A stretch of DNA of 24,000 nt, taken from Desertibaculum subflavum (GTDB lineage: Bacteria > Pseudomonadota > Alphaproteobacteria > Ferrovibrionales > Ferrovibrionaceae). Below the pieces are notes generated by a model. The model was not told the origin of the DNA, did no database searches, and saw nothing but the letters and a program-made list of their open reading frames with translations. Positions 1,446 through 22,255 of the stretch are shown here, piece by piece. The translations under genes and the position numbers were made by a program. How positions within the stretch are numbered: position 1 is the first letter of the stretch; the number at the start of each line of letters is the position of its first letter. The stretch is from NCBI RefSeq assembly GCF_003576705.1, contig NZ_QOZS01000004.1, positions 91,610-115,609 on the forward strand, read 5' to 3'.

Positions 1446-2498
1446 CTAAAGATACTGCTGGGCGATGTTGCAGGTGCCGGCGGCGCCGATCTTGTCGAAA
1501 TCCTGCTCCAGCCACTTGTCGGCGGCGGTGCGACCAAGGCCTTTCAGATAGGTCAGGAATTCCGGCTCCGCGTTCAGCTTGGTCGAGGCATGCAGATCGA
1601 CCATCACATCGGTGCCGTCGATCAGGTGCATGTTGGTGTGGCGGTACTCGCTCGGGTCGAGCTTGCCCCCGGCGATCAGCCGGTTGACGAAATTGATCGC
1701 CCGCATCTCGGCGATCAGCGAGCTGTTGAAGGTGATCTCATTGACCCGGTCCTGGATCTCGCGCGCGGTCGTCGGCACCGCCTCGCGAAACACCGGGTTG
1801 ACCTGCACGATCACGATGTCGCGGCTGCCCGGCGCATAGATCAGCGGCCAGATCGCCGGGTTGCCGACATAGCCGCCGTCGTAATAGGCCTCGCCCTTGA
1901 CCTCGACGGCACGAAACAGGAAGGGCAGGCAGGCCGAGGCGAGCACCGCCTCGATGCAGACCTCGCGGTTCTCGAACACCTTGACCTTGCCGGTGCGCAC
2001 GCTGGTGGCGCCGATATGGAGGCCAATGCGGCAGGCATAGCGGATGGCATCGAAATCGACCGCCTTCTCCAGCACGTCCTTCAGCGGGTTCAGCCCGTCC
2101 GGCAGCTGGTAGGGGGAAAACACCCGGCCCAGCATGTCCATGGCGATATAGCCGGGCGAATTGTCGATCCGCCAGTTGCCGAACAGGCGGTCCAGCGGGG
2201 TGCGCTGAATCAGGCTCCAGGTCGCCTCGCGGCCGATTTCGCCCCAGAACGCGTCGAGCGCGGCGCGCGCGCCCTGGCGGTCGCCGCTGGCATGACCCGA
2301 GGCCAGCACCGCCGCGTTCATCGCCCCGGCGCTGGTGCCGGAGATCGCCTCGATCTCCAGCCGCTCGTCTTCCAGCAGACGGTCGAGCACGCCCCAGGTG
2401 AAGGCGCCGTGCGAACCGCCGCCCTGCAGCGCGAGCTTGATGCCCTTCGGCCGCCCGTGGCTCGATGGCGGCGGAGCCGGAGGCTGGGCTTCGCTCAT
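1446..2498 (-). CDS. Patatin-like phospholipase family protein
   Basis: Oxyanion-hole motif LALQGGGSHGAF and nucleophile elbow GTSAGA, with a later DGG (YYDGGY). I trimmed the 497-aa track ORF to the start at MSEAQPPAPP (ATG 2498..2496), because the upstream 147 aa are Arg/Ala-rich junk overlapping the next gene. Confidence 0.9.
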   Translation of the reverse strand: MSEAQPPAPPPSSHGRPKGIKLALQGGGSHGAFTWGVLDRLLEDERLEIEAISGTSAGAMNAAVLASGHASGDRQGARAALDAFWGEIGREATWSLIQRTPLDRLFGNWRIDNSPGYIAMDMLGRVFSPYQLPDGLNPLKDVLEKAVDFDAIRYACRIGLHIGATSVRTGKVKVFENREVCIEAVLASACLPFLFRAVEVKGEAYYDGGYVGNPAIWPLIYAPGSRDIVIVQVNPVFREAVPTTAREIQDRVNEITFNSSLIAEMRAINFVNRLIAGGKLDPSEYRHTNMHLIDGTDVMVDLHASTKLNAEPEFLTYLKGLGRTAADKWLEQDFDKIGAAGTCNIAQQYL

Positions 2499-3472
2499 CA
2501 GGTGCTGGGCTTCTTGCGCAGCGGCGGCTTCGGCACCGGGCGGATCGGCACGCGCACAGGCGGCCGCGGCTTCACCGCCGGTTTGCGCGCGCCCTTCTCG
2601 TACATGGTGACGATGGCGATGCCGTCCTGCTCCGCATTGCCGTGCAGCAGGAAGAGACGCCAGAGCTGGGTGGCGAGGCCGGTGATCGGCAGCGGCGTGC
2701 CGCTGGCCTTGCCGACCGCGGTGATCAGGTCGAGATCCTTTACCAGGGTCTTGGCCTGACCCTGGCGGGCGAAATCGTGCTTGATCATGCGCCGGCCGTG
2801 CAGCTGCAGGATGGTGCTGTCGGCGAAGCCGCCTTCCAGCACATCCGGCAGCAGCCCGACATCGACGCCGTTGTCGCGCGCCAGCGCGAACATCTCCGAC
2901 AGCATCGGAATGGTGCAGCCGACCACGATCTGGTTGCACATCTTGGTGGTCTGGCCGGCGCCGATATCGCCCATGCGCACGAAGCGGCGGGCGACATGCT
3001 TCATCGCTGGCCGCACCCTCTCGACATCCGCCTCGGCGCCGCCGGCAAAGATGGCGAGCGTGCCGGCCTTGGCGCCGACCACGCCGCCGGTCACCGGGGC
3101 ATCGACCCAGCCCATCCCCGCCTCGCGCCGGAGGCGGAGCCCCAGGTCACGGGCGGCCTCCGGGCCCGTGGTCGAGTGATCGACCACGATCTTGCCGGGC
3201 TTGGCGCCCTCGATGACGCCGTCGGGCCCGAACACCACCTCCTCGACCGAAGCGCCGTCGAACACGCAGAGATGGATGATGTCGGCCGCGCGCGCCACCT
3301 CGGCCGGCGAAGCGGCCTCCTTGGCGCCGGCCTGCAGCGCCGGCAGGATCTTCTCGCGGCTGCGGTTCCACACCGTCACCGGATGGCCGCCCTTCAGCAG
3401 GTTCAAGGTCATCGGCAGGCCCATGAGCCCCAGCCCGATGAAACCGAGCGGCGTCTTGCCCTTCTTTGCCAT
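2498..3472 (-). CDS. NAD(P)-dependent oxidoreductase, 3-hydroxyisobutyrate dehydrogenase / 6-phosphogluconate-DH NAD-binding family
   Basis: N-terminal Rossmann motif GFIGLGLMGLPM and family-typical blocks (DAPVTGG, GAGQTTKMCNQ). Start chosen at MAKKGK (ATG 3472) because GGAGGGG lies directly upstream. The stop TGA (2500..2498) overlaps the patatin ATG as TGATG. It carries an unusual Pro/Lys/Arg-rich tail of about 30 aa. Confidence 0.9.
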   Translation of the reverse strand: MAKKGKTPLGFIGLGLMGLPMTLNLLKGGHPVTVWNRSREKILPALQAGAKEAASPAEVARAADIIHLCVFDGASVEEVVFGPDGVIEGAKPGKIVVDHSTTGPEAARDLGLRLRREAGMGWVDAPVTGGVVGAKAGTLAIFAGGAEADVERVRPAMKHVARRFVRMGDIGAGQTTKMCNQIVVGCTIPMLSEMFALARDNGVDVGLLPDVLEGGFADSTILQLHGRRMIKHDFARQGQAKTLVKDLDLITAVGKASGTPLPITGLATQLWRLFLLHGNAEQDGIAIVTMYEKGARKPAVKPRPPVRVPIRPVPKPPLRKKPST

Positions 3473-8297: not shown

Positions 8298-8427
8298 GAT
8301 CTGCCGTTCACTTTCCCGGCCAAGTTTTTCTTAAACTTTGCGGCGAATGATCGGGACAGTCGGGCACGCGAAGGCCCGGCCGGTCGGAGCGCCACTTCCG
8401 GCCTGTAATGCCTACCTGTCGCAAAGG

Positions 8428-8463
8428 GAGGGCCGCTCTCGCCGGAGCGGCCCTCTACTTTTT
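8428..8463 (+). terminator. Rho-independent terminator
   Basis: Perfect 11-bp stem GAGGGCCGCTC / GAGCGGCCCTC with a 6-nt loop, followed by tacTTTTT. It lies 130 nt after the GST stop. Confidence 0.6.
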
Positions 8464-8488
8464 CATCGGACGGCAACACAATTCGTCC

Positions 8489-8513
8489 GGAACCAATCGC
8501 GCGCCGGCGCGTT
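8489..8513 (+). promoter_or_regulatory. EcfG-type (alphaproteobacterial general stress response sigma factor) promoter
   Basis: GGAAC (8489..8493), exactly 16 nt, then CGTT (8510..8513). This matches the published GGAAC-N16/17-CGTT consensus. It lies about 108 nt upstream of the ATG at 8621. Confidence 0.6.
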
Positions 8514-8620
8514 GGGTGTGGCAGGAGCCCCGGCGCCGTCTCCCAAGGCCCGTTTCCCCCCTCCGTGCCTCCGGGCGCCGGGGTTCCGCCCCCGAAGCAC
8601 CCTTTCGAAGGAGGACCGCC

Positions 8621-8848
8621 ATGGCGGAGTCCCGCCCACCGAACGCGCGACCGCAAGCCGACCAGCGCAACGAAGGCGAAGGCAACCGCACCGCCGCGCG
8701 CCGCTACAACGCCGAGACGACCGAGCACGCCAAGCAGGACAGCAAGGTCCGCCAGGCCGCCGAGAAGGCCAAGCAGGCCATGCAATCGCCCGAGCGCAAG
8801 GACCTGACCGAGGCCGAGAAGCAGGGTCTGAACAAGGCCCGTCACTAG
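8621..8848 (+). CDS. Small (75 aa) highly charged hypothetical protein; probable general-stress-regulon member
   Basis: Strong SD GAAGGAGGA sits 5 nt before ATG 8621. The sequence is MAESRPPNARPQADQRNEGEGNRTAARRYNAETTEHAKQDSKVRQAAEKAKQAMQSPERKDLTEAEKQGLNKARH. It is bracketed by an EcfG-type promoter and a strong terminator. The EGEGNRTAARRYN-type block resembles small conserved alphaproteobacterial proteins that I cannot name precisely. Confidence 0.75.
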   Translation: MAESRPPNARPQADQRNEGEGNRTAARRYNAETTEHAKQDSKVRQAAEKAKQAMQSPERKDLTEAEKQGLNKARH

Positions 8849-13169: not shown

Positions 13170-13877
13170 GTGGACATGCTTTGGTGCCTGCGCGCGGTCG
13201 GCGCCGCCGCGCTCATTCTGTTTGCGGGTTGCTCGGTGCCCCGCGTCGAGGCCACCCAGGGATCGCTCGGCAAGATCGGCACGCTCGCCGTCATCATCCC
13301 GCCGGAGCCGAAGACGATCGGCGTCGCCGATTTCGGCCATCCCGGCATGGCCTTCGGACTGATCGGCGGCATGGCGGCCTCGGCCGACATGAAGGCCAAG
13401 CAGGACCGCGTCACCGCGGCGCTCAAGTCCGAGAAGCTCGAACTGTCGCCGTTGCTGGTCGATCGGGTGGTGGCCGGCCTTGCAGCCGGCGGCTACAAGG
13501 CGCGCGCCGAAACCGGGCCATGGCGCGAAATCGATGGCAAGCTTCAATTGCGATATGAGGAGATTCAGTCGGACGCCGATGCGGTGCTGGTTCTTGTCCC
13601 GAACCCGGCCTTCATGTCGCCCAACCTCGCTTCGGATTTCCTGCCGACCATGCTGGTGACGGCGGTGCTGCTCGACAAGGACCGCAAGACCCAGCTCTAT
13701 CGCGGCTTTCACGCGAGTGGCTGGAAGCCGACCGGCGATGGCTGGCGCCACACGCCGGCCAAGGTGACGTTTCCGACCTTCGACGCCGTGATGCAATCGC
13801 CGCCGGCGACCGCGATCGCGCTGAAGGACGGCACCGACGCCGTGGCGGCGACCGTGGTGGCCGATCTGCGCCGATAG
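13170..13877 (+). CDS. Hypothetical lipoprotein
   Basis: The N-terminus M(D)MLWCLRAVGAAALILFAGCS carries a lipobox (LFAG-C). SD GGGGAG lies upstream. The start is GTG 13170 or ATG 13176. I recognise no family for the mature part. Confidence 0.75.
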   Translation: MDMLWCLRAVGAAALILFAGCSVPRVEATQGSLGKIGTLAVIIPPEPKTIGVADFGHPGMAFGLIGGMAASADMKAKQDRVTAALKSEKLELSPLLVDRVVAGLAAGGYKARAETGPWREIDGKLQLRYEEIQSDADAVLVLVPNPAFMSPNLASDFLPTMLVTAVLLDKDRKTQLYRGFHASGWKPTGDGWRHTPAKVTFPTFDAVMQSPPATAIALKDGTDAVAATVVADLRR

Positions 13878-13940: not shown

Positions 13941-14606
13941 ATGGCGGCGGACGCGGCCCTGCTCGAACAGGCGAAGCGGGTTCTCTACACGGCGGTGTTG
14001 TCCGACGTGCTGGACGGGCTTGGGCACCGCCACCAGGCGATGCGGCCGAGCGTGCGGCCGCTCGACGACACGCTCATGCTGTTCGGCCGCGCCCGCACCG
14101 GGATCTACATGGACGTCTATCACGTCGATCCCGCGGTCAACCCCTACGAGCTCGAGATCAGGCTGATCGACGACCTGAAGCCGGGCGAGGTGGCGGTGCT
14201 CGCCTGCGGCACGAGCGGGCGCATCGCGCCCTGGGGCGAGCTGCTCACCACCGCCTCGCGGGCGCGCGGCGCCGCCGGCTGCGTCACCGACGGGCTCTGC
14301 CGCGACCTGCGGCTGATCCGCGAGATGCGCTTTCCGGTGTTCTGCGGCGGCATCGGCCCGCTCGATTCCAAGGGCCGCGGCATGGTGATGGCGATCGACG
14401 TGCCGGTGGAGACCGGCGGCGTGCACGTCGCGCCGGGCGACCTCGTGGTTGGCGATGTCGACGGCGTGATCGTGGTGCCCAAGGCGGTGGAGGTGGAGGC
14501 GCTCCGCCTCGCCATCGAGAAAGTCGCCGCCGAGGACACCACGCGGAAGGAGCTCGAAGCCGGCGCGCTGCTCGCCGACGTGTTCAAGCGGCACGGCGTG
14601 CTGTGA
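13941..14606 (+). CDS. RraA family protein (RNase E regulator / 4-hydroxy-4-methyl-2-oxoglutarate aldolase family)
   Basis: 221 aa with TAVLSDVLD, GE.L...A...G..G.V.DG..RD (GCVTDGLCRD) and GD.VVGD.DGV.VVP, the typical RraA-fold blocks. SD GGGAGGAAGCG lies before the ATG. Confidence 0.9.
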   Translation: MAADAALLEQAKRVLYTAVLSDVLDGLGHRHQAMRPSVRPLDDTLMLFGRARTGIYMDVYHVDPAVNPYELEIRLIDDLKPGEVAVLACGTSGRIAPWGELLTTASRARGAAGCVTDGLCRDLRLIREMRFPVFCGGIGPLDSKGRGMVMAIDVPVETGGVHVAPGDLVVGDVDGVIVVPKAVEVEALRLAIEKVAAEDTTRKELEAGALLADVFKRHGVL

Positions 14607-15076
14607 GCGCGGCCTGCACCATCGTGCCGCTGGCGGCGCGGCCGGATCTCGTGCCGCTGGTCGCCGAATGGGGCCATGCCACCTGGGGCCATCTCGCGCC
14701 CGGCGACACCGCGGCGAAGCGGGCCGGGCGGCTCAAGCGGCATCTGCAGGTCGATGCGGTGCCAAGCACCATCGTGGCGCTCGACGCGGCCGGCGTGCCG
14801 GTCGGCTCCGCGGGCCTGCTCGCGCATGACATCGACGGCGATCCGCGCGGGCCCTGGCTCGCCAGCGTCTACGTCGTGCCGGAGCGGCGCGGCGAGGGCT
14901 TCGGCAAGGCGGTGGTCGGCGCGATCGAGGCATCGGCCGCGCACGCCGGCATCGCCCTGCTCTATCTCTTCACGCCCGACAAGATGAGCTTCTACGCCAG
15001 CCTCGGCTGGACCGCGATCGAAGCCCGCGACTACCGCGGCGAGCACATCACGGTGATGACGAAGCGGTTGGGTTAG
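14603..15076 (+). CDS. GNAT family N-acetyltransferase
   Basis: 157 aa with the acetyl-CoA motif A region VYVVPERRGEGFGKAVV and the C-terminal YASLGW. The GTG start overlaps the RraA-family stop (GTGA). Confidence 0.82.
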   Translation: MSAACTIVPLAARPDLVPLVAEWGHATWGHLAPGDTAAKRAGRLKRHLQVDAVPSTIVALDAAGVPVGSAGLLAHDIDGDPRGPWLASVYVVPERRGEGFGKAVVGAIEASAAHAGIALLYLFTPDKMSFYASLGWTAIEARDYRGEHITVMTKRLG

Positions 15077-16199
15077 TTCGATGCCGCGGAAACGGGCCGA
15101 TCGCTGATCCGGCGATCTCGCGTTCAATGATTCGCGTGAGCGAGGCAAATTCGCGATGCGTCTTCTGGTCCCGCGGCAGGACCAGCGTGAACTGGAGAAG
15201 TGCCAGCTCCGTATCGCGAGGCTCCAGCAGCATCCATCGCAGCAAGACGAAGGCCCCGTCCTTCTCCGTGCCCGGTTGCTCTTCATGGAAGAGCAGCCTC
15301 CCCGGCATCTCGGTCGGGCGCGGCACAGCGCCTCGCCGGCTGAAGACCTGTTTGTACCGCTCCAACAGCTGCTCTCTGGCTCCCTCATATAGATCGTACT
15401 GGATCCAGAAAGTGCCCGTATTCGGTTCATCCTCGCAGGCGATCCACATGCCGTCAGGCGAAGAATATTCGTCGTACCAGCGCGCCGGCACATTCAGTTC
15501 GATGAAGCCGAAGGCGCGCATCGGCCGCACGCGATCGAAGCCGAAACCCCGGTCGAGCGAGCCGACCAGGCGCGGGTCGCTGGGCGGCGCACGGCGGAAC
15601 TGCTGTCCGAACAATTCCTCCAGGATCGCGGTATCCGCGCTGTGCCAGAACCGGTCGCGGACATAGAGCGACAGCCATGCTTCGACGATCACACCATCCA
15701 GGCGCAGAAGCTGGGGCCAGTGCCAGGCGCTGAACCCGTCTCGGTCCGACTTTGCCACCGGCACCTGGAGCGCAACCATGCGCCTGACGTCGAGCTCGGC
15801 GAACGTCTCTTTCATATTTTTGCCGGTCAGCGCTTGCATGATCTCTGCCGCCCGCGACCTGATGGTCTCACGCCAGTCGCTGCCCGCCGGCAGCAGCCGC
15901 ATTCTGCGCTCGAGACCGTAGTCGCGTTGCGCCGGCGCCGTCCAAGGCGCGCCGGTGTCGTCGCGTCCAGTGTCCCAGTCATGCGGAACCCGGAAGCGAT
16001 AGCCGTCCAGGCTGATCGTCTTGAGCGGGCCCAGATGCGCCGCCAGCGTGTCGTAGTCTGGCGTGGAGCCCATATCCTCGACTGCCGGAACGCTGTTGCT
16101 TTGCTCCGCCATCGGCGATTCCCTTGCTTGTTCGAACGACGCTGGCGCGACCAAGGCGAACATTGCCACCAGCCACCACGCCGCGTGCCGAATCGTCAT
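15048..16199 (-). CDS. Uncharacterized secreted protein, divergent member (A) of the four-paralog array
   Basis: 383 aa. It has a Sec-type N-terminus MTIRHAAWWLVAMFALVAPASF. It shares array motifs (YRFRVPHDW in the first half, FGFIELNVPARW and LLRWMLLEP in the second). It lies 9 nt downstream of paralog B. High GC3 on this strand. Confidence 0.7.
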   Translation of the reverse strand: MTIRHAAWWLVAMFALVAPASFEQARESPMAEQSNSVPAVEDMGSTPDYDTLAAHLGPLKTISLDGYRFRVPHDWDTGRDDTGAPWTAPAQRDYGLERRMRLLPAGSDWRETIRSRAAEIMQALTGKNMKETFAELDVRRMVALQVPVAKSDRDGFSAWHWPQLLRLDGVIVEAWLSLYVRDRFWHSADTAILEELFGQQFRRAPPSDPRLVGSLDRGFGFDRVRPMRAFGFIELNVPARWYDEYSSPDGMWIACEDEPNTGTFWIQYDLYEGAREQLLERYKQVFSRRGAVPRPTEMPGRLLFHEEQPGTEKDGAFVLLRWMLLEPRDTELALLQFTLVLPRDQKTHREFASLTRIIEREIAGSAIGPFPRHRTNPTASSSP

Positions 16200-16208
16200 T
16201 GATAATCT

Positions 16209-17294
16209 CTACGGTCGGCGGGCCGGTGCCGTGTCGTTCGGCCGCTTACCGGTCTCGATCGTCGCTTCCTTCTCCGCCGGCGGGCGGCCGATGCGCATGC
16301 GGTGGAGCTGCTCGTCGACGATCTGCACCAGTTCCTTGAACTCCGGCCGGTCGGCGTCGCTCTCCGCCATGAAGAGGTCGACGATCAGGATCATCGCCCG
16401 GTCTTCCGTGCCGTCGGAAATCATCCACTGCACGCGGCGGCGGTCGTCGCTCTTGTTCTCGCGCCGATAGGGCGCATCCATCTTGCGGTAGACGGCACCG
16501 CCGCGGTCATGGTGACGGATGACGATGTGATAGCCGATCCAGAGCTCGGGCGAGCCGGGCCGCGGATCGTAGTAGCCGACCACGTCGCCATCGTTCTCCT
16601 GTCGCCAGGTGCTCGGCACGCGCAAGGCCATGAAGCCGAACGGCGTCACCGGTCGGAGCGAACGGAAGTCGTAACGGTCTTCGGACCGCGGCGGCGGCAG
16701 TCGATCGATCACCGATGGTGGCGGTGCGAGGCTGCCGCGCAGGAGCTGTTCGCGGAACAGCCTGACGATCTCGACCGTCACCGCCGGCTCGCGCGCCTGC
16801 GGACGCACCTCGATCTGGAATCCGGAGACATGCGCGTCGCGCGGATCGGTCCAGAACTGGACCACGCTGTGCGTAAGGGCGCCGGCGACACGGCCGCCCA
16901 CCGGGACTGTGGCCTCGATCAGCAGGGTACCGCCGCGCTCCGCGACCCGCAGGTCTCGGGCGGAGCGGTCCTCCAGCAGCCGCCGGATCGGATCGACCAG
17001 GCTCTTCCGCCCGGCAGCGGGATCGCCTCCATGAGCGACGGCGATCTGGGTGAGCTCGACCATGTAGTTCCGGTCGGCCGAGCCGAGCCGCAGCTGATCC
17101 TTCGCGTCGCGCCAGACACGCCAGCCGGCGGGCACGATCAGCGACGGCGGATCGGCGCTGGCGCGGTCCTTGATCTCGAGCCGTTCGAGCCGGAAGGCGG
17201 TCGAGCTGAATCCGTCGAGCTCATAGGGCTGCGCCTTCGCGGCGACCGCGCTCGTCAGCGCCAGTATGCCGAGGGCGAGCCACGCCGCCTTCAT
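16209..17294 (-). CDS. Uncharacterized secreted protein, paralog B of the array
   Basis: 361 aa from MKAAWLALGILALTSAVAAKA|QP, a clear signal peptide. The ATG (17294) overlaps the stop of paralog C as ATGA. It is alignable over its full length with C and D. The track ORF (443 aa) is over-extended upstream. Confidence 0.8.
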   Translation of the reverse strand: MKAAWLALGILALTSAVAAKAQPYELDGFSSTAFRLERLEIKDRASADPPSLIVPAGWRVWRDAKDQLRLGSADRNYMVELTQIAVAHGGDPAAGRKSLVDPIRRLLEDRSARDLRVAERGGTLLIEATVPVGGRVAGALTHSVVQFWTDPRDAHVSGFQIEVRPQAREPAVTVEIVRLFREQLLRGSLAPPPSVIDRLPPPRSEDRYDFRSLRPVTPFGFMALRVPSTWRQENDGDVVGYYDPRPGSPELWIGYHIVIRHHDRGGAVYRKMDAPYRRENKSDDRRRVQWMISDGTEDRAMILIVDLFMAESDADRPEFKELVQIVDEQLHRMRIGRPPAEKEATIETGKRPNDTAPARRP

Positions 17295-18391
17295 GCCCGG
17301 CCTCGCTTCGCCGATGGGCGCCCGATCTCGCGGGTCGCTTCCGCCTCGGGCGGCGGCAGGCCGATCTTCATGCGGCGCACCTGCTCGTCGAGGATCAGGA
17401 TCAGCTCCTGGAACTCGGGGTCGTCCGCCTGCCCCTCGTCGAGCATCAGATCGATCAGCACGATCATCGACCGGTCGGCCGTGGTGTCCTTGACCATCCA
17501 TTGCAAGCGCTCGATCTCGGGGTCCTTGCTCTGCCGCCAATAGCGGTCGACCTCGCGCGACGGCGTCAGGCCCGAGCCATGATCGCGGATGACGACGTGG
17601 TAGGAGATCCAGAGCGCGCCCGAGCGCTGGTCCGGGTCGTAGTAGCCCTGCGCCCCGCCGCTCTCATGCGCGCGCCAATGGCGCGGCACGCCGATGCTCA
17701 TGAAGCCGTGCGGCTGCACATGGTGGAGGTCGCGGAAGTCGAAGCGGTACGCCGCCGGCGTCGGCGGCAGCTTGTCCAGGACCGATGCCGCGGCCCAGAA
17801 GCGGCCGCGAAGGATCTGCGCCCGCAGCAGATCGACGATGTCGGCGGTTTCTGGCCGATCCCAGATTTCGGGCCGCGTGATCAGATGGTAGCCGACCAGA
17901 TAGAGCTTGCCGTCTTCCGGCCAGATGCGGAACAGGTTGCGGATTCGCACCTGGCGCCCGTCATAGGTAGTGTCCTGCGCGCTCTCGAAGATGGTGTGAT
18001 CCTCGTGGCGATAGCTGCGCGGACGGGGAAGGCCGGCGCCGATCGAGGCCTCGCGGCGCAGCTCGCCGAGCAGTCCGCGCAAGGTGGCGGCTTCGTCGGC
18101 ACCGATCGGCCGGAAGCCCCCCGACCGCTGCAGGATGTAATTCTCGTCCGGATCGGCGAGCCAGATATTGTCGCCCTGCGTCAGGCCACTCCGCCAATCG
18201 GCCGGCACGACGAACGAGCCGATGGTGGTGCCTGTGCGGTCGTCGATCTCGACTCGCTTCAGCTCGAAAAAGCGGGATTGATAGCCTTCGAATTCGTACA
18301 TCGGCTTCGCCTCCTCCGCGCGGCCGACCAGCAGGGTGAAGATCAGAAGGAAGGTGCGAACCGCCTCGACGAAGAGTTCGAGCGAGAGCAT
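17291..18391 (-). CDS. Uncharacterized protein, paralog C of the array
   Basis: 366 aa from MLSLELFVEAVRTFLLIFTLLVGRAEEA, with GGAGG 7 nt upstream and 13 nt after the paralog D stop. An alternative start at MYEFEGY (ATG 18301) also has GGAGGAGG upstream. The track ORF (414 aa) is over-extended. Confidence 0.75.
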   Translation of the reverse strand: MLSLELFVEAVRTFLLIFTLLVGRAEEAKPMYEFEGYQSRFFELKRVEIDDRTGTTIGSFVVPADWRSGLTQGDNIWLADPDENYILQRSGGFRPIGADEAATLRGLLGELRREASIGAGLPRPRSYRHEDHTIFESAQDTTYDGRQVRIRNLFRIWPEDGKLYLVGYHLITRPEIWDRPETADIVDLLRAQILRGRFWAAASVLDKLPPTPAAYRFDFRDLHHVQPHGFMSIGVPRHWRAHESGGAQGYYDPDQRSGALWISYHVVIRDHGSGLTPSREVDRYWRQSKDPEIERLQWMVKDTTADRSMIVLIDLMLDEGQADDPEFQELILILDEQVRRMKIGLPPPEAEATREIGRPSAKRGRA

Positions 18392-18404
18392 TTCCGGCCT
18401 CCGC

Positions 18405-19400
18405 TCACGCGCGCCGCCGCGGCTCGGCGCAGGCCTCGGCGCTCGCCGGCGGCATGCCGATGCGCATGCGGCGCACCTCGTCGTTGACGATGCCGACCAG
18501 CTCGCGGAATTCCGGCGTGTCGGCGCGTTCGGCATCCATCACCAGATCGACGATCGCCCACATCGCGCGGTCGTGCGTGCTGTCGGACACCATCCACTTG
18601 ATGCGGCGGAGGCGAACGCCGCGGTCTTCCTCTTCGCGCGCGGTCATGTCGACCTTGCGATGTAGCTCACCGCCGTTGTTCGGGAAGCGGAGGATCACCA
18701 CGTAGTTGACGAACAGCGTCAGCGCCGCCTCGTCGGGATCGAAATAGGCGACATGGCCTTCGTCGTCCTCTTCCGACTCCCAGTATTCGGGCACGCGGAG
18801 CTGCATGAAGCCGTAGGGCTCGACTGGCTTCAGGTCGCGGAAATTGAAGCGGCTGTCCGGCTTCGGCGGCGGCAGGCGATCGACCAGGGGCAGGTCGGCG
18901 GGCGGCTCGGCCCGCAGGATCTGCGGGCGGAAGAGGTCGATCAGGTCCTGCGTCCTCGGCCGATCGGCCAGGCGCGATCCGTATTCGAGACCGAGCTGGC
19001 CGACGAAGTAGACGTCGTCGCGCGACCACAATCGGAACAGGCGGAAGACGTGGAAGCCGTCGCCCGTGTCGCTCGCGGCCTCGATCAGGGCGCGGTCGCC
19101 CTCGCGCATCGTCGCGACCGGCTGGGCGAGGCCCTGTTCCTCCACTCCTGCGACGATGCTTTCGACCAATCCGTCACGCTGACGTACCGGGTCGCGGCGA
19201 AGCGGGAAGACGTCGAAGGTGATCTGAACCCGGTAATCGCCATCCGGATCGGCGATCCAGATCAGGTCGCGATGGCTGAGTTCGCCGCGCCAATGGTCCG
19301 GCGCATAGATCGGATCGCGCCGGCCTGTCGAGCGATCGAGCACCTCGAACCGCTTCAGCGGGAAAAACCGCGTCCGATTTCCGTCCAGCTCGTGCATCAT
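18405..19400 (-). CDS. Uncharacterized protein, paralog D (first gene) of the array; no signal peptide
   Basis: 331 aa from MMHELDGNRTRFFPLKRFEV, with GAGG 6 nt upstream of the ATG at 19400. An alternative upstream ATG at 19472 would add 24 non-hydrophobic residues. It is alignable with B and C throughout. Confidence 0.7.
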   Translation of the reverse strand: MMHELDGNRTRFFPLKRFEVLDRSTGRRDPIYAPDHWRGELSHRDLIWIADPDGDYRVQITFDVFPLRRDPVRQRDGLVESIVAGVEEQGLAQPVATMREGDRALIEAASDTGDGFHVFRLFRLWSRDDVYFVGQLGLEYGSRLADRPRTQDLIDLFRPQILRAEPPADLPLVDRLPPPKPDSRFNFRDLKPVEPYGFMQLRVPEYWESEEDDEGHVAYFDPDEAALTLFVNYVVILRFPNNGGELHRKVDMTAREEEDRGVRLRRIKWMVSDSTHDRAMWAIVDLVMDAERADTPEFRELVGIVNDEVRRMRIGMPPASAEACAEPRRRA

Positions 19401-19428
19401 CCCTGCCTCGCGCTTAGAACGAACAAGG

Positions 19429-19456
19429 AACATACTGATCGACGCGGCCCGATCAA
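19429..19456 (-). promoter_or_regulatory. Putative sigma-70 promoter of the paralog array
   Basis: On the minus strand: TTGATC (19456..19451), 16 nt, then TATGTT (19434..19429). It lies about 30 nt upstream of the D start at 19400. Confidence 0.35.
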
Positions 19457-19462
19457 CTACCA

Positions 19463-19494
19463 ATTCGTGCATTAACTATCTTTGATGCACGAAT
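19463..19494. promoter_or_regulatory. Perfect 10-bp inverted repeat (candidate operator/activator site) in the divergent control region
   Basis: ATTCGTGCAT (19463..19472), 12 nt AT-rich spacer taactatctttg, then ATGCACGAAT (19485..19494). It sits just upstream of the putative -35 of the array promoter and next to the AT-rich block at 19519..19554. Confidence 0.55.
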
Positions 19495-20477
19495 CCGCCC
19501 GCCGTACCGGCAAGAGCGTACTATATAGAGAATATAAATTAAATAACTCTCATTGCGGGTATCGCGGAGTTGCGACTGGCCGGCCCGCGGGGCATGCCTA
19601 TGCTCCCCGCCAGCACCCGCCCGGAGCTTTCGCCCTGTATCCCTGGCTTGACCGCACCGGTCGCTTTTCCGCCCTGAAAGCCCTGACCTTCGCGCTCGTC
19701 CTGGCGCCGGGTCTATGGCTGGTCGCGCAAGGCCTGGTCGAAGGGTTCGGCGCCGAGCCGATCAAGACGGCGCTGCGCAATCTCGGCGACTGGACGGTGC
19801 GCTTCCTGCTGCTCGCCCTGCTCGTCACCCCACTGCGCCAGATCGGGCGCTGGCCGCGCCTGATGCTGGTGCGGCGCATGCTGGGCGTCACCGCCTTCGC
19901 CTATGCGGCGGTGCATTTCACGCTCTACATCGCCGATCAGAGCTTCAATCTCGCCGTGGTCGCGCGCGAGATCTGGCTCCGCGTCTATCTCACCATCGGC
20001 TTCGTCGCGCTGGCCGGCCTGACGGTGCTGGCGGCGACCTCGACCGACCGCATGGTGCGGCGGCTCGGCGGCCGGCGCTGGCAACGCCTGCACCGCGCCG
20101 CCTATCCGCTCGCCGCCCTCGCGCTGATCCACTTCCTGCTGCAGAGCAGCAAGTCGGGCATCGACGAGGCCGTGCTGATGTCGGGCTGCTACATCTGGCT
20201 GATGGGCCATCGCCTGATGCAGGCGGGCTTCGCCGCGCCGGGCCCGCTGCACCGCCTCGCCCTCGCCGGCCTTACCGCCTTGCTGACGGCCGCCGGCGAG
20301 GCCGCCTGGTACGGGCTCACCACCGGCATCGATCCCTGGCGCGTGGCCGCGGCCAATCTCGACCCGCTCGGCATGCTGCGCCCGGCCTGGTGGGTGCTGG
20401 CGGCGGGCATCGTCATGGTGGCAATCGACATCGCCCGCGCGACACAGCGCCGCCGCGCGCTGCAGCCCGCGACCTAG
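19485..20477 (+). CDS. Ferric-reductase-like transmembrane domain protein (MsrQ/YedZ-like heme-b subunit), start uncertain
   Basis: The core from about 19634 is YPWLDRTGRFSALKALTFALVLAPGLWL...GDWTVRFLLLALLVTPLR...GVTAFAYAAVHFTLY...WQRLHRAAYPLAALALIHFL. That is the MsrQ-type helix and His pattern. The only in-frame ATG (19485) lies inside the palindrome and would add about 50 implausible residues. About 100 extra C-terminal residues contain further hydrophobic segments. Confidence 0.75.
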   Translation: MHESARRTGKSVLYREYKLNNSHCGYRGVATGRPAGHAYAPRQHPPGAFALYPWLDRTGRFSALKALTFALVLAPGLWLVAQGLVEGFGAEPIKTALRNLGDWTVRFLLLALLVTPLRQIGRWPRLMLVRRMLGVTAFAYAAVHFTLYIADQSFNLAVVAREIWLRVYLTIGFVALAGLTVLAATSTDRMVRRLGGRRWQRLHRAAYPLAALALIHFLLQSSKSGIDEAVLMSGCYIWLMGHRLMQAGFAAPGPLHRLALAGLTALLTAAGEAAWYGLTTGIDPWRVAAANLDPLGMLRPAWWVLAAGIVMVAIDIARATQRRRALQPAT

Positions 20478-21361
20478 CCGGGCGGCGCCCAGTCGAGCTC
20501 GAAAGCTTCGCCGCGTCCTCTGATATAGGCCGCATGCGGCGCGCCGAAATGCGCCGGCAGCATCAGGCTCCGCGTCTCCGCGCAATGCCCGAGCAGGGCA
20601 TGGCGCGTCGCGCGCGATTGCACCGGATCCTCGCAGGAGCTGGCACTCCACTGCCAGAGGGGCACCTGCAACGGGCTGTGCAGCGCGTCGCCGGCGAATA
20701 CCGCGCGCTTGTCCGCGGAGGCGAGATCGATGCGGAAATGCCCGGGCGTGTGGCCCGGCGCGGCGACGACCCGGAGCGCCGCGTCGCATTCATGCCCGTC
20801 CTCCACCATGGCGACGCGACCCGACTCCATCACCGGCAGGATCGAATCCGCATAGGCCTGGCGGCGGAATTCGGACGCGTCCGGCGCGCCGGCGCGGGCA
20901 TGCCAGAGATCGTGATCGATGCGCGACATCACGTAGGTCGCATTGGGGAAAGTCGGCACCCAGCGCCCGTCCTTCGCTTGCGTGTTCCAGCCGATGTGAT
21001 CGACATGCAGATGCGTGCACATGACGACGTCGATCATGTCAGGTGTCACGCCGGCGGCGGCAAGCCGCTGCAGAAAGGGCCGGTCCTGCAGATGAAAGTC
21101 CGGCATGCCGGGACGCTCTTTGCCGTTGCCGCCGCAGGCATCGATCAGGATGCGATGCCGCGGCGTCTCGACCAACCAGCTGTGAATGCTGAAGCGGATC
21201 TGGTCGCGCGCCGCATCGTAGTGGTGCGGCGCGAGCCAGTCCGCATGGCGGGCGAACTCCTCCGGATCGAAATCGGGGAAGAAGCGCGACGGCGGATCGG
21301 CGGACCAGATGAACTCCTCGATCCGGGTGACGCGCACATCGCCGATCTGCCAGACCTGCAC
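20474..21361 (-). CDS. MBL-fold metallo-hydrolase (lactonase-like)
   Basis: 295 aa with the zinc motif THLHVDHIGWN, later GHTPGH and an Asp/His-containing C-terminal half. The GTG start lies 3 nt after the stop of the upstream paralog. Confidence 0.9.
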   Translation of the reverse strand: MQVWQIGDVRVTRIEEFIWSADPPSRFFPDFDPEEFARHADWLAPHHYDAARDQIRFSIHSWLVETPRHRILIDACGGNGKERPGMPDFHLQDRPFLQRLAAAGVTPDMIDVVMCTHLHVDHIGWNTQAKDGRWVPTFPNATYVMSRIDHDLWHARAGAPDASEFRRQAYADSILPVMESGRVAMVEDGHECDAALRVVAAPGHTPGHFRIDLASADKRAVFAGDALHSPLQVPLWQWSASSCEDPVQSRATRHALLGHCAETRSLMLPAHFGAPHAAYIRGRGEAFELDWAPPG

Positions 21362-21364
21362 GAG

Positions 21365-22255
21365 TTACCCCCGATCCCAGTCGAGCTCGAAGGCGTCGCC
21401 CTTGGCCTTGATATAGGCCGCGTGCGGCGGGGCGAAATGCGCCGGCATGAGCAGCGCGCGCGTCTCGGCGCAATGCGCCAGCAGCTCGCCGCGCGTCCTG
21501 CGCGCCTGCGCCGGGTCCTCGCAGAACCGGCTGTTCCATTGCCAGAGCGGCACCTGCACCGGATTGTGCAGCGCATCGCCCGAGAACACGGCGCGCCGGT
21601 CCTTCGACGCGAGGTCGACCCGGATATGGCCGGGCGTGTGGCCCGGTGTCGGCCGCACGGTGAGGCAGGCATCGCACTGGTGCCCGTCGGCGACGAACTC
21701 GGCCTTGCCCGCCTCCACCACCGGCAGGACGGAATCGTTGTAGGTGTTGACCTGATAGGCGGCCGTCTCCGGCCGCTTCGCCTCGGCCGCCCAGTGGTCG
21801 TGGTCGGTGCGCGACATCACGTAGCGCGCGTTCGGGAAGGTCGGCACCCAGCGGCCGTCCTGAAGCCGGGTGTTCCAGCCGACATGATCGACATGCAGAT
21901 GCGTGCACATCACGAAGTCGACCTGTTCCGGCGCCACGCCGGCCGCCTGCAGCCGGTCGAGATAGGGCGTGTCCAGCATGTCGAAGCGCGGCATGGCGGG
22001 ACGCGGCTTGTGGTTGCCGCTGCAGGCATCGATCAGGATGGTGTGGTGCGGCGTCCGCACCAGCCAGGAATGGATCGATGCGATCAGCTTGCCGCTCTCC
22101 GGCTGGTAGTAGGTCGGCGCCAGCCAATGCTCGTGTGACTTGAAGGTCTCCGCATCGAATTCCGGAAAGAAATCCTTGGCCGGGAAGCCCGGGCCCATGA
22201 TCTCCTCGATACGCGTGACGCGCACATCCCCGATCAGCCGTTCCTGCATGCTCAC
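21365..22255 (-). CDS. MBL-fold metallo-hydrolase (lactonase-like), tandem paralog
   Basis: 296 aa with THLHVDHVGWN and GHTPGH. It is collinear with 20474..21361 over the whole length. Confidence 0.9.
   Translation of the reverse strand: MSMQERLIGDVRVTRIEEIMGPGFPAKDFFPEFDAETFKSHEHWLAPTYYQPESGKLIASIHSWLVRTPHHTILIDACSGNHKPRPAMPRFDMLDTPYLDRLQAAGVAPEQVDFVMCTHLHVDHVGWNTRLQDGRWVPTFPNARYVMSRTDHDHWAAEAKRPETAAYQVNTYNDSVLPVVEAGKAEFVADGHQCDACLTVRPTPGHTPGHIRVDLASKDRRAVFSGDALHNPVQVPLWQWNSRFCEDPAQARRTRGELLAHCAETRALLMPAHFAPPHAAYIKAKGDAFELDWDRG

Follow-up and report, generated by a model that had tools for sequence, protein, structure and literature searches.

The subject of this analysis is a 24,000-nucleotide stretch of DNA from the soil bacterium Desertibaculum subflavum (contig NZ_QOZS01000004.1, positions 91,610 to 115,609; hereafter the window), and in particular four adjacent genes on its minus strand, called D, C, B and A in the direction of transcription. 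We consider it highly probable that these genes form a chromosomal operon encoding eight alpha/beta domains of ~155 residues with a Mog1p/PsbP/DcrB-like fold, which belong to an uncatalogued family and carry no conserved catalytic or cofactor residues. The functional reading that we rank first, with a probability of roughly 0.3 to 0.35, is that the proteins are diversifying, non-enzymatic binders of the cell envelope with an immunity-like or neutralising role and without a linked toxin. Three elements of this reading are inferred: where the proteins reside, which we read from their N-termini, that they act by binding, and what kind of partners they have.

Coordinates, minus strand and gene order D-C-B-A had been given in an earlier note on this DNA, together with tight junctions (13 nt containing GGAGG, an ATGA overlap, and 9 nt), and all proved correct on direct reading of the sequence (Table 1). 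The stop codon of D (TGA) is followed by gcGGAGGccggaa (13 nt) and by the ATG of C at 18391, C and B share an ATGA stop/start overlap at 17291-17294, and the stop codon of B (TAG) is separated by agattatca (9 nt) from the ATG of A at 16199. Gene D starts with ATGATG, with a GAGG Shine-Dalgarno motif 8-9 nt upstream. Related loci, numbered L001 to L013, were used for comparison, with orthologs taken from metagenomic contigs; the D orthologs in L001, L002 and L011 likewise begin with M(H/Y)ELDG. All four genes lie on the same strand with spacings of at most 13 nt or an overlap, no terminator-like site was seen on the minus strand within the array, and D-C-B-A is predicted to be a single operon.

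Protein B is 100% identical to a hypothetical protein of D. subflavum at NCBI, where the species is placed in the Sneathiellales (Alphaproteobacteria), and protein A begins in the NCBI entry (P0004) at Met30 instead of Met1. In C, a GGAGGAGG motif is found 8 nt upstream of Met31 (MYEFEG..., 18301-18330), and a short, signal-less isoform resembling D and starting at this residue is conceivable. The C ortholog in L002 has no methionine at the corresponding position, so that the long form is required in L002. At the other end of the array, the 3' ends of A and of the convergent GNAT acetyltransferase gene overlap by 29 nt (15048-15076), with no terminator between them, and an overlap of this kind recurs in L011 (59 nt).

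Table 1. Features of the D-C-B-A array and its surroundings. Positions are those of the window, except for the L002 frame, for which they are those of its own locus.
Feature	Positions	Strand	Description
Gene D	18405-19400	minus	331 residues, opens the unit, two domains (N 18906-19313, C 18459-18833)
D-C spacer	18392-18404	minus	13 nt, GGAGG inside; read from the sequence
Gene C	17291-18391	minus	366 residues, two domains (N 17798-18259, C 17363-17728)
Gene B	16209-17294	minus	361 residues, two domains (N 16728-17165, C 16290-16658)
B-A spacer	16200-16208	minus	9 nt; read from the sequence
Gene A	15048-16199	minus	383 residues, divergent paralog, linker of ~35 residues, two domains (N 15585-16025, C 15099-15530)
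Recombination-replaced tract in B	16551-17150	minus	residues ~48-248, 67-79% nucleotide identity to L001
5' leader, probable promoter region	19401-19600	minus	shared by D and the divergent MsrQ-like gene
Frame between C and B in L002	2778-2933		51 residues, limited to the family's C-terminal tail motif (DPEFRDLIVILDEQVRRMQIGMPPPEAKA)
GNAT acetyltransferase gene	14603-15076	plus	convergent with A
MsrQ-like Ferric_reduct frame	19482-20477	plus	331 residues from the first TTG
Metallo-beta-lactamase-fold paralogs	20474-21361, 21365-22255	minus	295 and 296 residues, in tandem just past the MsrQ-like gene
Frames with coding-like third positions	13170-13877, 8408-8848	plus	no Pfam match; the first has 235 residues
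Patatin gene	1446-2939		12 kb from the array, beyond PolA

The window has a GC content of 64-73%, and DNA so rich in GC yields many long spurious open reading frames (ORFs); overlapping ORFs of 300-400 residues are in fact present on the opposite strand. The four frames might then have arisen by chance in a genome of 68% GC, or be pseudogenes in decay. We regard this explanation as refuted. The GC content at third codon positions (GC3) of A to D is 0.78-0.86 versus a regional GC of 0.64-0.68, consistent with coding, and the ratio of non-synonymous to synonymous substitution rates (dN/dS) among orthologs from metagenomic relatives is 0.12-0.42, over dS values of 0.08-1.4 (dN/dS of 0.22-0.29 for D), which argues that the frames are translated and under purifying selection. 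In addition, orthologs are intact in at least six independent contigs, the structure models described below are confident, and Shine-Dalgarno motifs are present. The frames are thus real genes, as the earlier note had treated them.

Proteins B, C and D are paralogs. B is 38% identical to C over 348 residues (E-value 8e-72) and 37% identical to D (E-value 1e-62), with mutual identities among the three of 37-39% (E-values 1e-62 to 8e-72). This similarity is far above chance, and the shared motif blocks previously aligned by eye are all visible in the alignment. A is the more divergent member that it had been taken for (24% identity to B over 314 residues, E-value 3e-9). The description as tandem paralogs therefore stands, but the true repeat unit is a domain of ~155 residues present twice per protein, and not the protein of ~350 residues. 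A hidden Markov model (HMM) of this domain, started from the C-terminal halves and iterated with every relative collected, detects both halves of all four proteins (domain E-values 1e-14 to 1e-37) and 1-4 domain copies in each family member. A six-frame scan of the window found exactly eight domain copies, and none outside the array. Alignment of N-terminal with C-terminal halves by hhalign was weak (46% probability, covering only the last strand and helix); we take each of A to D to be an internal duplication of one ~155-residue domain because the iterated HMM matches both halves. In B, C and D, the C-terminal domain has lost the central helix segment (131 residues versus ~155 for the full domain).

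When 32 domain copies are aligned, just two residues are invariant, namely the P and the W of the strand-initial P..W motif. Conservation elsewhere concerns hydrophobic residues and glycines, together with an acidic C-terminal helix (DPEF..L..I.D.E). No catalytic, cofactor or nucleotide-binding pattern is conserved across the 32 copies, in agreement with what had been noted by eye for the four proteins.

At the sequence level, the proteins had been called unassignable, and Pfam, NCBIfam, PADLOC and PHROGs indeed provide no usable family, either for them or for their remote relatives. Scans of A to D against Pfam-A and NCBIfam gave nothing better than E 0.0027, with every match far under its curated cutoff. 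The Pfam models DUF1795 (DcrB/Eag), PsbP and Lpp-LpqN did not match A to D at E<=1, nor 62 remote relatives at E<=0.01. PADLOC (HMMs for anti-phage defence) gave no matches for A to D, and PHROGs (phage protein families) only noise at E ~0.1. Sequence and profile searches of the PDB returned only a marginal match to BT_1490 (3HLZ); with the domain profile, it extends over two strands, the first ones (E-value 0.075). The corresponding Pfam model, DUF3805 (PF12712), scores C with 11.6 bits (E 0.29), under its gathering cutoff of 22 bits, does not match A, B or D, and reaches E 7e-5 for one remote relative. DUF3805 and BT_1490 are the only sequence-level links of the family to any known family, and they appear to reflect remote relatedness rather than membership. 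No paper on DUF3805 turned up in a literature search, and for Desertibaculum there was only a name validation list, silent on the A-D family.

An exhaustive HMMER search of 1.84 billion (1.84e9) representative proteins identified 69 proteins with an E-value of at most 1e-3, of which 8 reach E<=1e-30; the named genome matches are Rhodospirillales-type Alphaproteobacteria. Among 241 million metagenome records scanned, there was one locus (on one short contig), tblastn searches of plasmid and phage collections found no match, and the 32-domain alignment, used in a word-indexed homolog search, brought up one fragment. Genome contigs scanned with a profile of the close family returned no relative, not even the source genome; with the remote subfamily, they returned two metagenome-assembled genomes, one from Thalassospiraceae and one from Rhodospirillaceae. 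Remote members are free of signal peptides and have 1-4 domains (possibly five in one protein of 1394 residues). Together, the searches point to a very small and rare family that is covered by no curated database, new at the family level and with a fold already known. The earlier claim of novelty can thus be kept for the sequence family and has to be dropped for the fold, which is Mog1p/PsbP-like with a Foldseek probability of 1.00. The domain boundary (~155 residues), the fold and the seed alignment suffice for a Pfam-type entry in the Mog1p/PsbP-like clan.

The fold was assessed with AlphaFold2 models of mature B and, from a separate alignment of 17 sequences, of mature A (predicted local distance difference test, pLDDT, 74.8 and 77.3, respectively). 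Both models consist of two tandem domains with identical order of strands and helices. Each domain is an alpha-beta-alpha sandwich with an antiparallel sheet opening with a beta-hairpin, one mid helix and one C-terminal helix. In Foldseek searches of the PDB with the two models, all matches with probability 1.00 belong to the Mog1p/PsbP-like superfamily (PsbP, 3LYD, BT_1490, LpqN, MTC28, Tsi3, Mog1p and the BamC N-domain, with target-normalised template modelling (TM) scores of 0.27-0.58), and DcrB and the Eag chaperones SciW and EagT6 were found with probabilities of 0.82-0.99. The two independent models and the probability-1.00 matches support the PsbP/DcrB-type fold that had been offered before as a guess. 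By these models, the A-D domain has a Mog1p/PsbP/DcrB-like fold, an assignment at fold level and not a precise one, given the TM range and a pLDDT of ~75. The best full-length match of B was the two-domain protein TplEi/Tli4 (5h7z; E 7e-5, probability 0.94); as the full-length TM score is only ~0.2, the likeness is per domain and not in overall shape.

Several groups share the fold with A-D, but each differs from them in other respects. BT_1490 (DUF3805) matches A with fold probability 1.00 and a root-mean-square deviation of 4.0-4.4 Å, but its domain is joined to a helical DUF3806 domain and not to a second copy of itself, and its host is Bacteroides. The DcrB/DUF1795 group (PF08786; SciW, EagT6, Tsi3) shares the fold and the strand-initial signature (hydrophobic-x-hydrophobic-P-x-x-W), and comprises protein-binding, non-enzymatic members, of which DcrB and Tsi3 are periplasmic. 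However, its HMM does not match A-D, the lipobox of DcrB is missing from A-D, and its proteins have a single domain whereas the A-D family consists of tandem repeats of 2-4 domains. The genes for Eag proteins and Tsi3 are moreover adjacent to effector genes, and those for A-D are not. PsbP/CyanoP (PF01789), LpqN/MTC28 (Lpp-LpqN) and Mog1p share the fold (target-normalised TM 0.38-0.58) and are extrinsic or secreted binding proteins, but there is no sequence match, and their partners (photosystem II, mycobacterial MmpL-type complexes and Ran, respectively) are absent here. All characterised members of the fold act by binding proteins (PMC7716261, PMC3482391, PMC5611513), as immunity proteins, secretion chaperones, envelope accessory lipoproteins or photosystem II extrinsic subunits (same sources), which makes non-enzymatic protein binding the most economical mode of action for A-D.

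Export signals had been proposed for the array, and are recognisable for B, for A and, in the form of a hydrophobic, anchor-like N-terminus, for C, but not for D. B has a classical Sec signal peptide (17232-17294; MKAAWLALGILALTSAVAAKA followed by QP, with cleavage after AKA), and A a signal-peptide-like N-terminus (16134-16199, MTIRHAAWWLVAMFALVAPASF). The N-terminus of C is hydrophobic (residues ~10-23, AVRTFLLIFTLLVG), with charged residues after it, and is likely a signal anchor or an atypical signal peptide; its hydrophobic character is conserved in four lineages, with differing sequences in the orthologs P0005, L011_2 and L002_C. No export signal was found on D or on its orthologs in L001, L002 and L011. 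Orthologs of A have a signal-peptide-like N-terminus in L011 and L002, and none in L001, L005, L006 and L013. A DcrB-type lipobox was not detected, as the signal peptides of B, C and A neither contain a cysteine nor are followed by one. On the whole, most domain copies in the D. subflavum lineage would be exported. As a side observation, the remote relatives predicted to be cytoplasmic (P0011-P0036) retain, in the first hairpin, the cysteines of the 'W.C' and 'CYEE' positions, while B and C have no cysteine and A and D one each; cysteine loss would fit a periplasmic adaptation of the exported copies.

The chromosomal position of the array is fixed, just upstream of genes for GNAT, RraA, HSP20, DUF1465, L31, frataxin and an ATP-binding cassette (ABC) exporter (in L005 and L006, a second GNAT takes the place of RraA). 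Within this slot, the number of genes ranges from 2 to 4 and the number of domains in the A-type protein from 2 to 3. Four genes are found in the window, L001 and L002, three in L011 and L012, and two in L005 and L006 (a BCD-type gene with signal peptide and an A-type gene without, with overlapping stop and start) as well as in L013 (an A-type gene without signal peptide and a C-type gene whose called frame leaves out the signal peptide). The A-type genes in L001 and L002 encode a third, BCD-type domain at the N-terminus. The short frame between C and B in L002 (Table 1), also recovered in the exhaustive protein search (as P0071), is the leftover of a lost or recombined paralog. The earlier note had asked whether the family always occurs in multi-copy arrays; relatives with the array carry 2-4 genes, and the remote members are solitary in the housekeeping contexts examined. 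The paralog types are old, with 37-39% mutual identity versus 55-98% between orthologs, and relatives have retained D, C, B and A as orthologs.

The upstream neighbour is variable. In the window and in L001, it is a divergent MsrQ-like Ferric_reduct gene and, with PsbP as the precedent of an extrinsic subunit of a membrane redox complex, A-D might be PsbP-like extrinsic subunits or partners of this haem reductase. However, this gene is missing between the array and the upstream genes in L002, where a metallo-beta-lactamase-fold gene is the neighbour, and in L011, which like L012 has HxlR and NmrA instead; in L005 and L006 it is displaced, with an IS1595 transposase, several unknown genes and a major facilitator superfamily (MFS) gene intervening. 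Because the upstream neighbour changes among relatives, we rejected the MsrQ-like gene as a functional partner; the earlier note had hinted at the association, and an explanation built on it is largely refuted. The suggestion that A-D are substrate-binding proteins finds no support; the array is not accompanied by a transporter partner, and its fold is a different one.

An MFS_1 gene lies directly upstream of family members and divergent from them in L005 (8623-9891), L006 (3740-4921) and L010 (3812-4996). These are two independent contexts, the two-gene array of L005 and L006 and the solitary four-domain protein P0013 in L010; there is no MFS_1 gene next to the array in the window. A link of MFS genes to the family was set aside as too weak, as such genes are common and chance may explain the adjacency.

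Comparison with L001, a ~95%-identical relative, uncovered a mosaic of conserved and divergent segments. DNA identity is 91-100% in the flanking genes, in D and C and, within B, over the first ~47 and the last ~110 codons; dS in the flanking genes is 0.09-0.17. The divergent tract in B (Table 1), which covers most of both B domains, is bordered on its sides by 91-98% nucleotide identity; dS is 0.71 for residues 48-248 versus 0.07-0.20 for the rest of B. A diverges over its entire length (55-76% DNA identity, 51% amino acid identity, dS 1.19), and identity returns to 90-97% exactly at the A/GNAT boundary. The A protein of the window is closer to that of L011 (72%) than to that of L001 (51%), although L001 is the closer genome. 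In the comparison with L011, dN is ~3 times higher in the array than in the flanks. By this pattern, the middle of B (residues 48-248) and the whole of A are cassettes replaced by recombination. As a source of the B tract, gene conversion from C or D was considered and rejected (the tract is ~30% identical to C and D versus 59-68% to other B alleles). A fixed chromosomal address in combination with variable gene and domain number and with sharp allele replacement in ~95%-identical strains is a pattern usual for genes that deal with other organisms (immunity genes, receptors and surface proteins), and it is what makes the locus of interest.

The tandem array, the changes in copy and domain number, and the cassette replacement argue for partners that vary between strains, and thereby for an immunity-like or neutralising role. 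According to the reading that we favour, A-D would act through protein binding, not catalysis. B and A would reach the periplasm via cleavable signal peptides, C would be kept at, or exported across, the inner membrane through its hydrophobic N-terminus, and D would remain in the cytoplasm. The array would serve as a diversifying set of binders that track variable envelope proteins, immunity-like, with its own toxin not linked. The two domains of each protein might grip the partner as TplEi/Tli4 (PA1509; 5h7z, 4r1d), the periplasmic immunity protein against the lipase Tle4/TplE of a type VI secretion system (T6SS), grips the cap domain of Tle4; each domain of TplEi binds one subdomain of the toxin cap (PMC5611513). 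TplEi resembles B in being non-enzymatic, two-domained and of ~300 residues. However, identity to B is 12-13%, with no detectable sequence homology, the domain arrangement differs or is mis-modelled in B, the Tli4 gene adjoins its effector gene whereas the array lacks an effector, and the A-D family includes members predicted to be cytoplasmic. PsbP/MOG1-like domains have already been tied to toxin systems and polyimmunity loci (PMC3482391). Homogeneous polyimmunity loci (Zhang et al. 2012, PMC3482391) share with the array the tandem diverged paralogs, copy-number change, recombination and PsbP/MOG1 domains, but the array stays fixed among housekeeping genes, with neither a toxin cassette nor a secretion gene nearby, and its paralog types are old and retained as orthologs.

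Several observations weigh against this reading. No toxin, no component of T6SS, type IV secretion or contact-dependent inhibition systems, and no other conserved partner was found in the 24-kb window or the related loci, and genes for a lipase, muramidase, VgrG, PAAR or Hcp were missing from the neighbourhood of the array, both in the window and in L001 to L013 (for the patatin gene, see Table 1). An adjacent cognate effector gene, as is characteristic for T6SS immunity genes such as those for Tli4/TplEi and Tsi3, is thus absent from all of these loci. The array lies among housekeeping genes (PolA, HSP20, RraA, GNAT, ABC exporter) and appears to be vertically inherited, and the PADLOC scan was negative. 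Among proteins of the same fold, members without immunity function (3LYD, PsbP, LpqN) match equally well as, or better than, Tsi3 and TplEi, with only the low TM score given above for the full-length alignment of TplEi. The mosaic pattern comes from one close relative and a few metagenomic contigs, the localization is a prediction from sequence, and D and some A-type orthologs have no export signal. Finally, the remote relatives are solitary, multi-domain and without signal peptide, and found in unrelated housekeeping contexts, which fits a general cellular role better than immunity.

A narrower version, in which the array is a toxin-less orphan immunity or decoy locus of broad-spectrum binders, new for Alphaproteobacteria and distributed over cytoplasm, inner membrane and periplasm, with the B-centre and A cassettes exchanged between strains against incoming envelope effectors of competitors or phages, seems doubtful to us. 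If binders of this kind did neutralise incoming toxins, they would represent an immunity family without toxin linkage, and the PsbP fold would have gained a new use. The finding would be ordinary if A-D were instead housekeeping envelope accessory or scaffold proteins of the DcrB, LpqN, MTC28 or BamC N-domain type, the exported ones docking on resident membrane complexes and aiding their assembly or stability, with the variability due to neutral turnover of redundant paralogs. We consider this main rival possible, though on the unlikely side. The fold matches these very proteins, the DcrB/Mog1p/PsbP group has been described as tied to membrane-anchored complexes (PMC7716261), and the fixed slot among housekeeping genes, the retention of D, C, B and A as orthologs, the purifying selection and the lack of nearby toxin genes would all be expected. 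Harder to reconcile with scaffolds are the missing lipobox cysteine, which DcrB, LpqN and BamC have, the lack of a conserved membrane-complex neighbour, the copy number of 2-4, the predicted cytoplasmic location of D and replaced alleles with dS 4-10 times that of the flanks, unusual for a fixed housekeeping interaction.

We think it rather improbable, more so than the decoy version, that the family has a general cytoplasmic role (as chaperone, adaptor or in small-ligand binding), with some members re-targeted to the periplasm and perhaps a heteromer spanning cytoplasm, membrane and periplasm. Such a role would account for the remote relatives, which lack signal peptides, have 1-4 domains and are solitary in the housekeeping contexts examined, and for the A-type proteins, which are nearest to them and lack a signal peptide in L001, L005, L006 and L013. 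It would also suit the minimal unit of L005 and L006, an exported BCD-type and a signal-peptide-less A-type protein encoded with overlapping stop and start. However, no ligand-binding or conserved polar motif exists beyond structural positions, and the cassette replacement would be left unexplained. Far less credible still is a function as secretion chaperones or adaptors of the Eag type (DUF1795) for T6SS effectors. SciW and EagT6 are among the fold matches, and PsbP/MOG1-like adaptor genes are known in T6SS operons (PMC3482391), but Eag chaperones are cytoplasmic and encoded next to their effectors, which have N-terminal transmembrane helices, while three of the four proteins here have predicted export signals, none of the loci contains an effector, VgrG or PAAR gene, and DUF1795 does not match in Pfam.

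The leader region between D and the MsrQ-like gene contains a perfect 9-bp inverted repeat (TTCGTGCAT-N12-ATGCACGAA), a very AT-rich stretch (ttatttaatttatattctctatatag) within a region of 68% GC and, at 19457-19434, a hairpin with a T-run behind it. Together, these elements might serve the divergent D and MsrQ-like genes as operator, promoter and attenuator. L001 has them too, but this genome is too close for their conservation to be informative. A sigma-70 consensus scan found no match in the leader, and an Rfam scan of the whole window found nothing. The sequence ATGCACGA(A/G)(T/C)TGG occurs twice in one frame (19472-19460 and 19397-19385), giving 'MHEL' at an upstream in-frame ATG and again at the start of D, and may be the remnant of a duplicated 5' end.

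Homologs of the MsrQ-like protein in L005 and L006 have 270 residues. The true start of the gene is probably ~60 codons downstream of the first TTG, and the D/MsrQ intergenic region would then measure ~260 bp. No gene for an MsrP (YedY) partner is adjacent to it. The pair of metallo-beta-lactamase-fold paralogs beyond it is conserved in L005 and L011. Of the two plus-strand frames with coding-like GC3 and without Pfam match (Table 1), the one encoding 235 residues is 97% conserved in L001.

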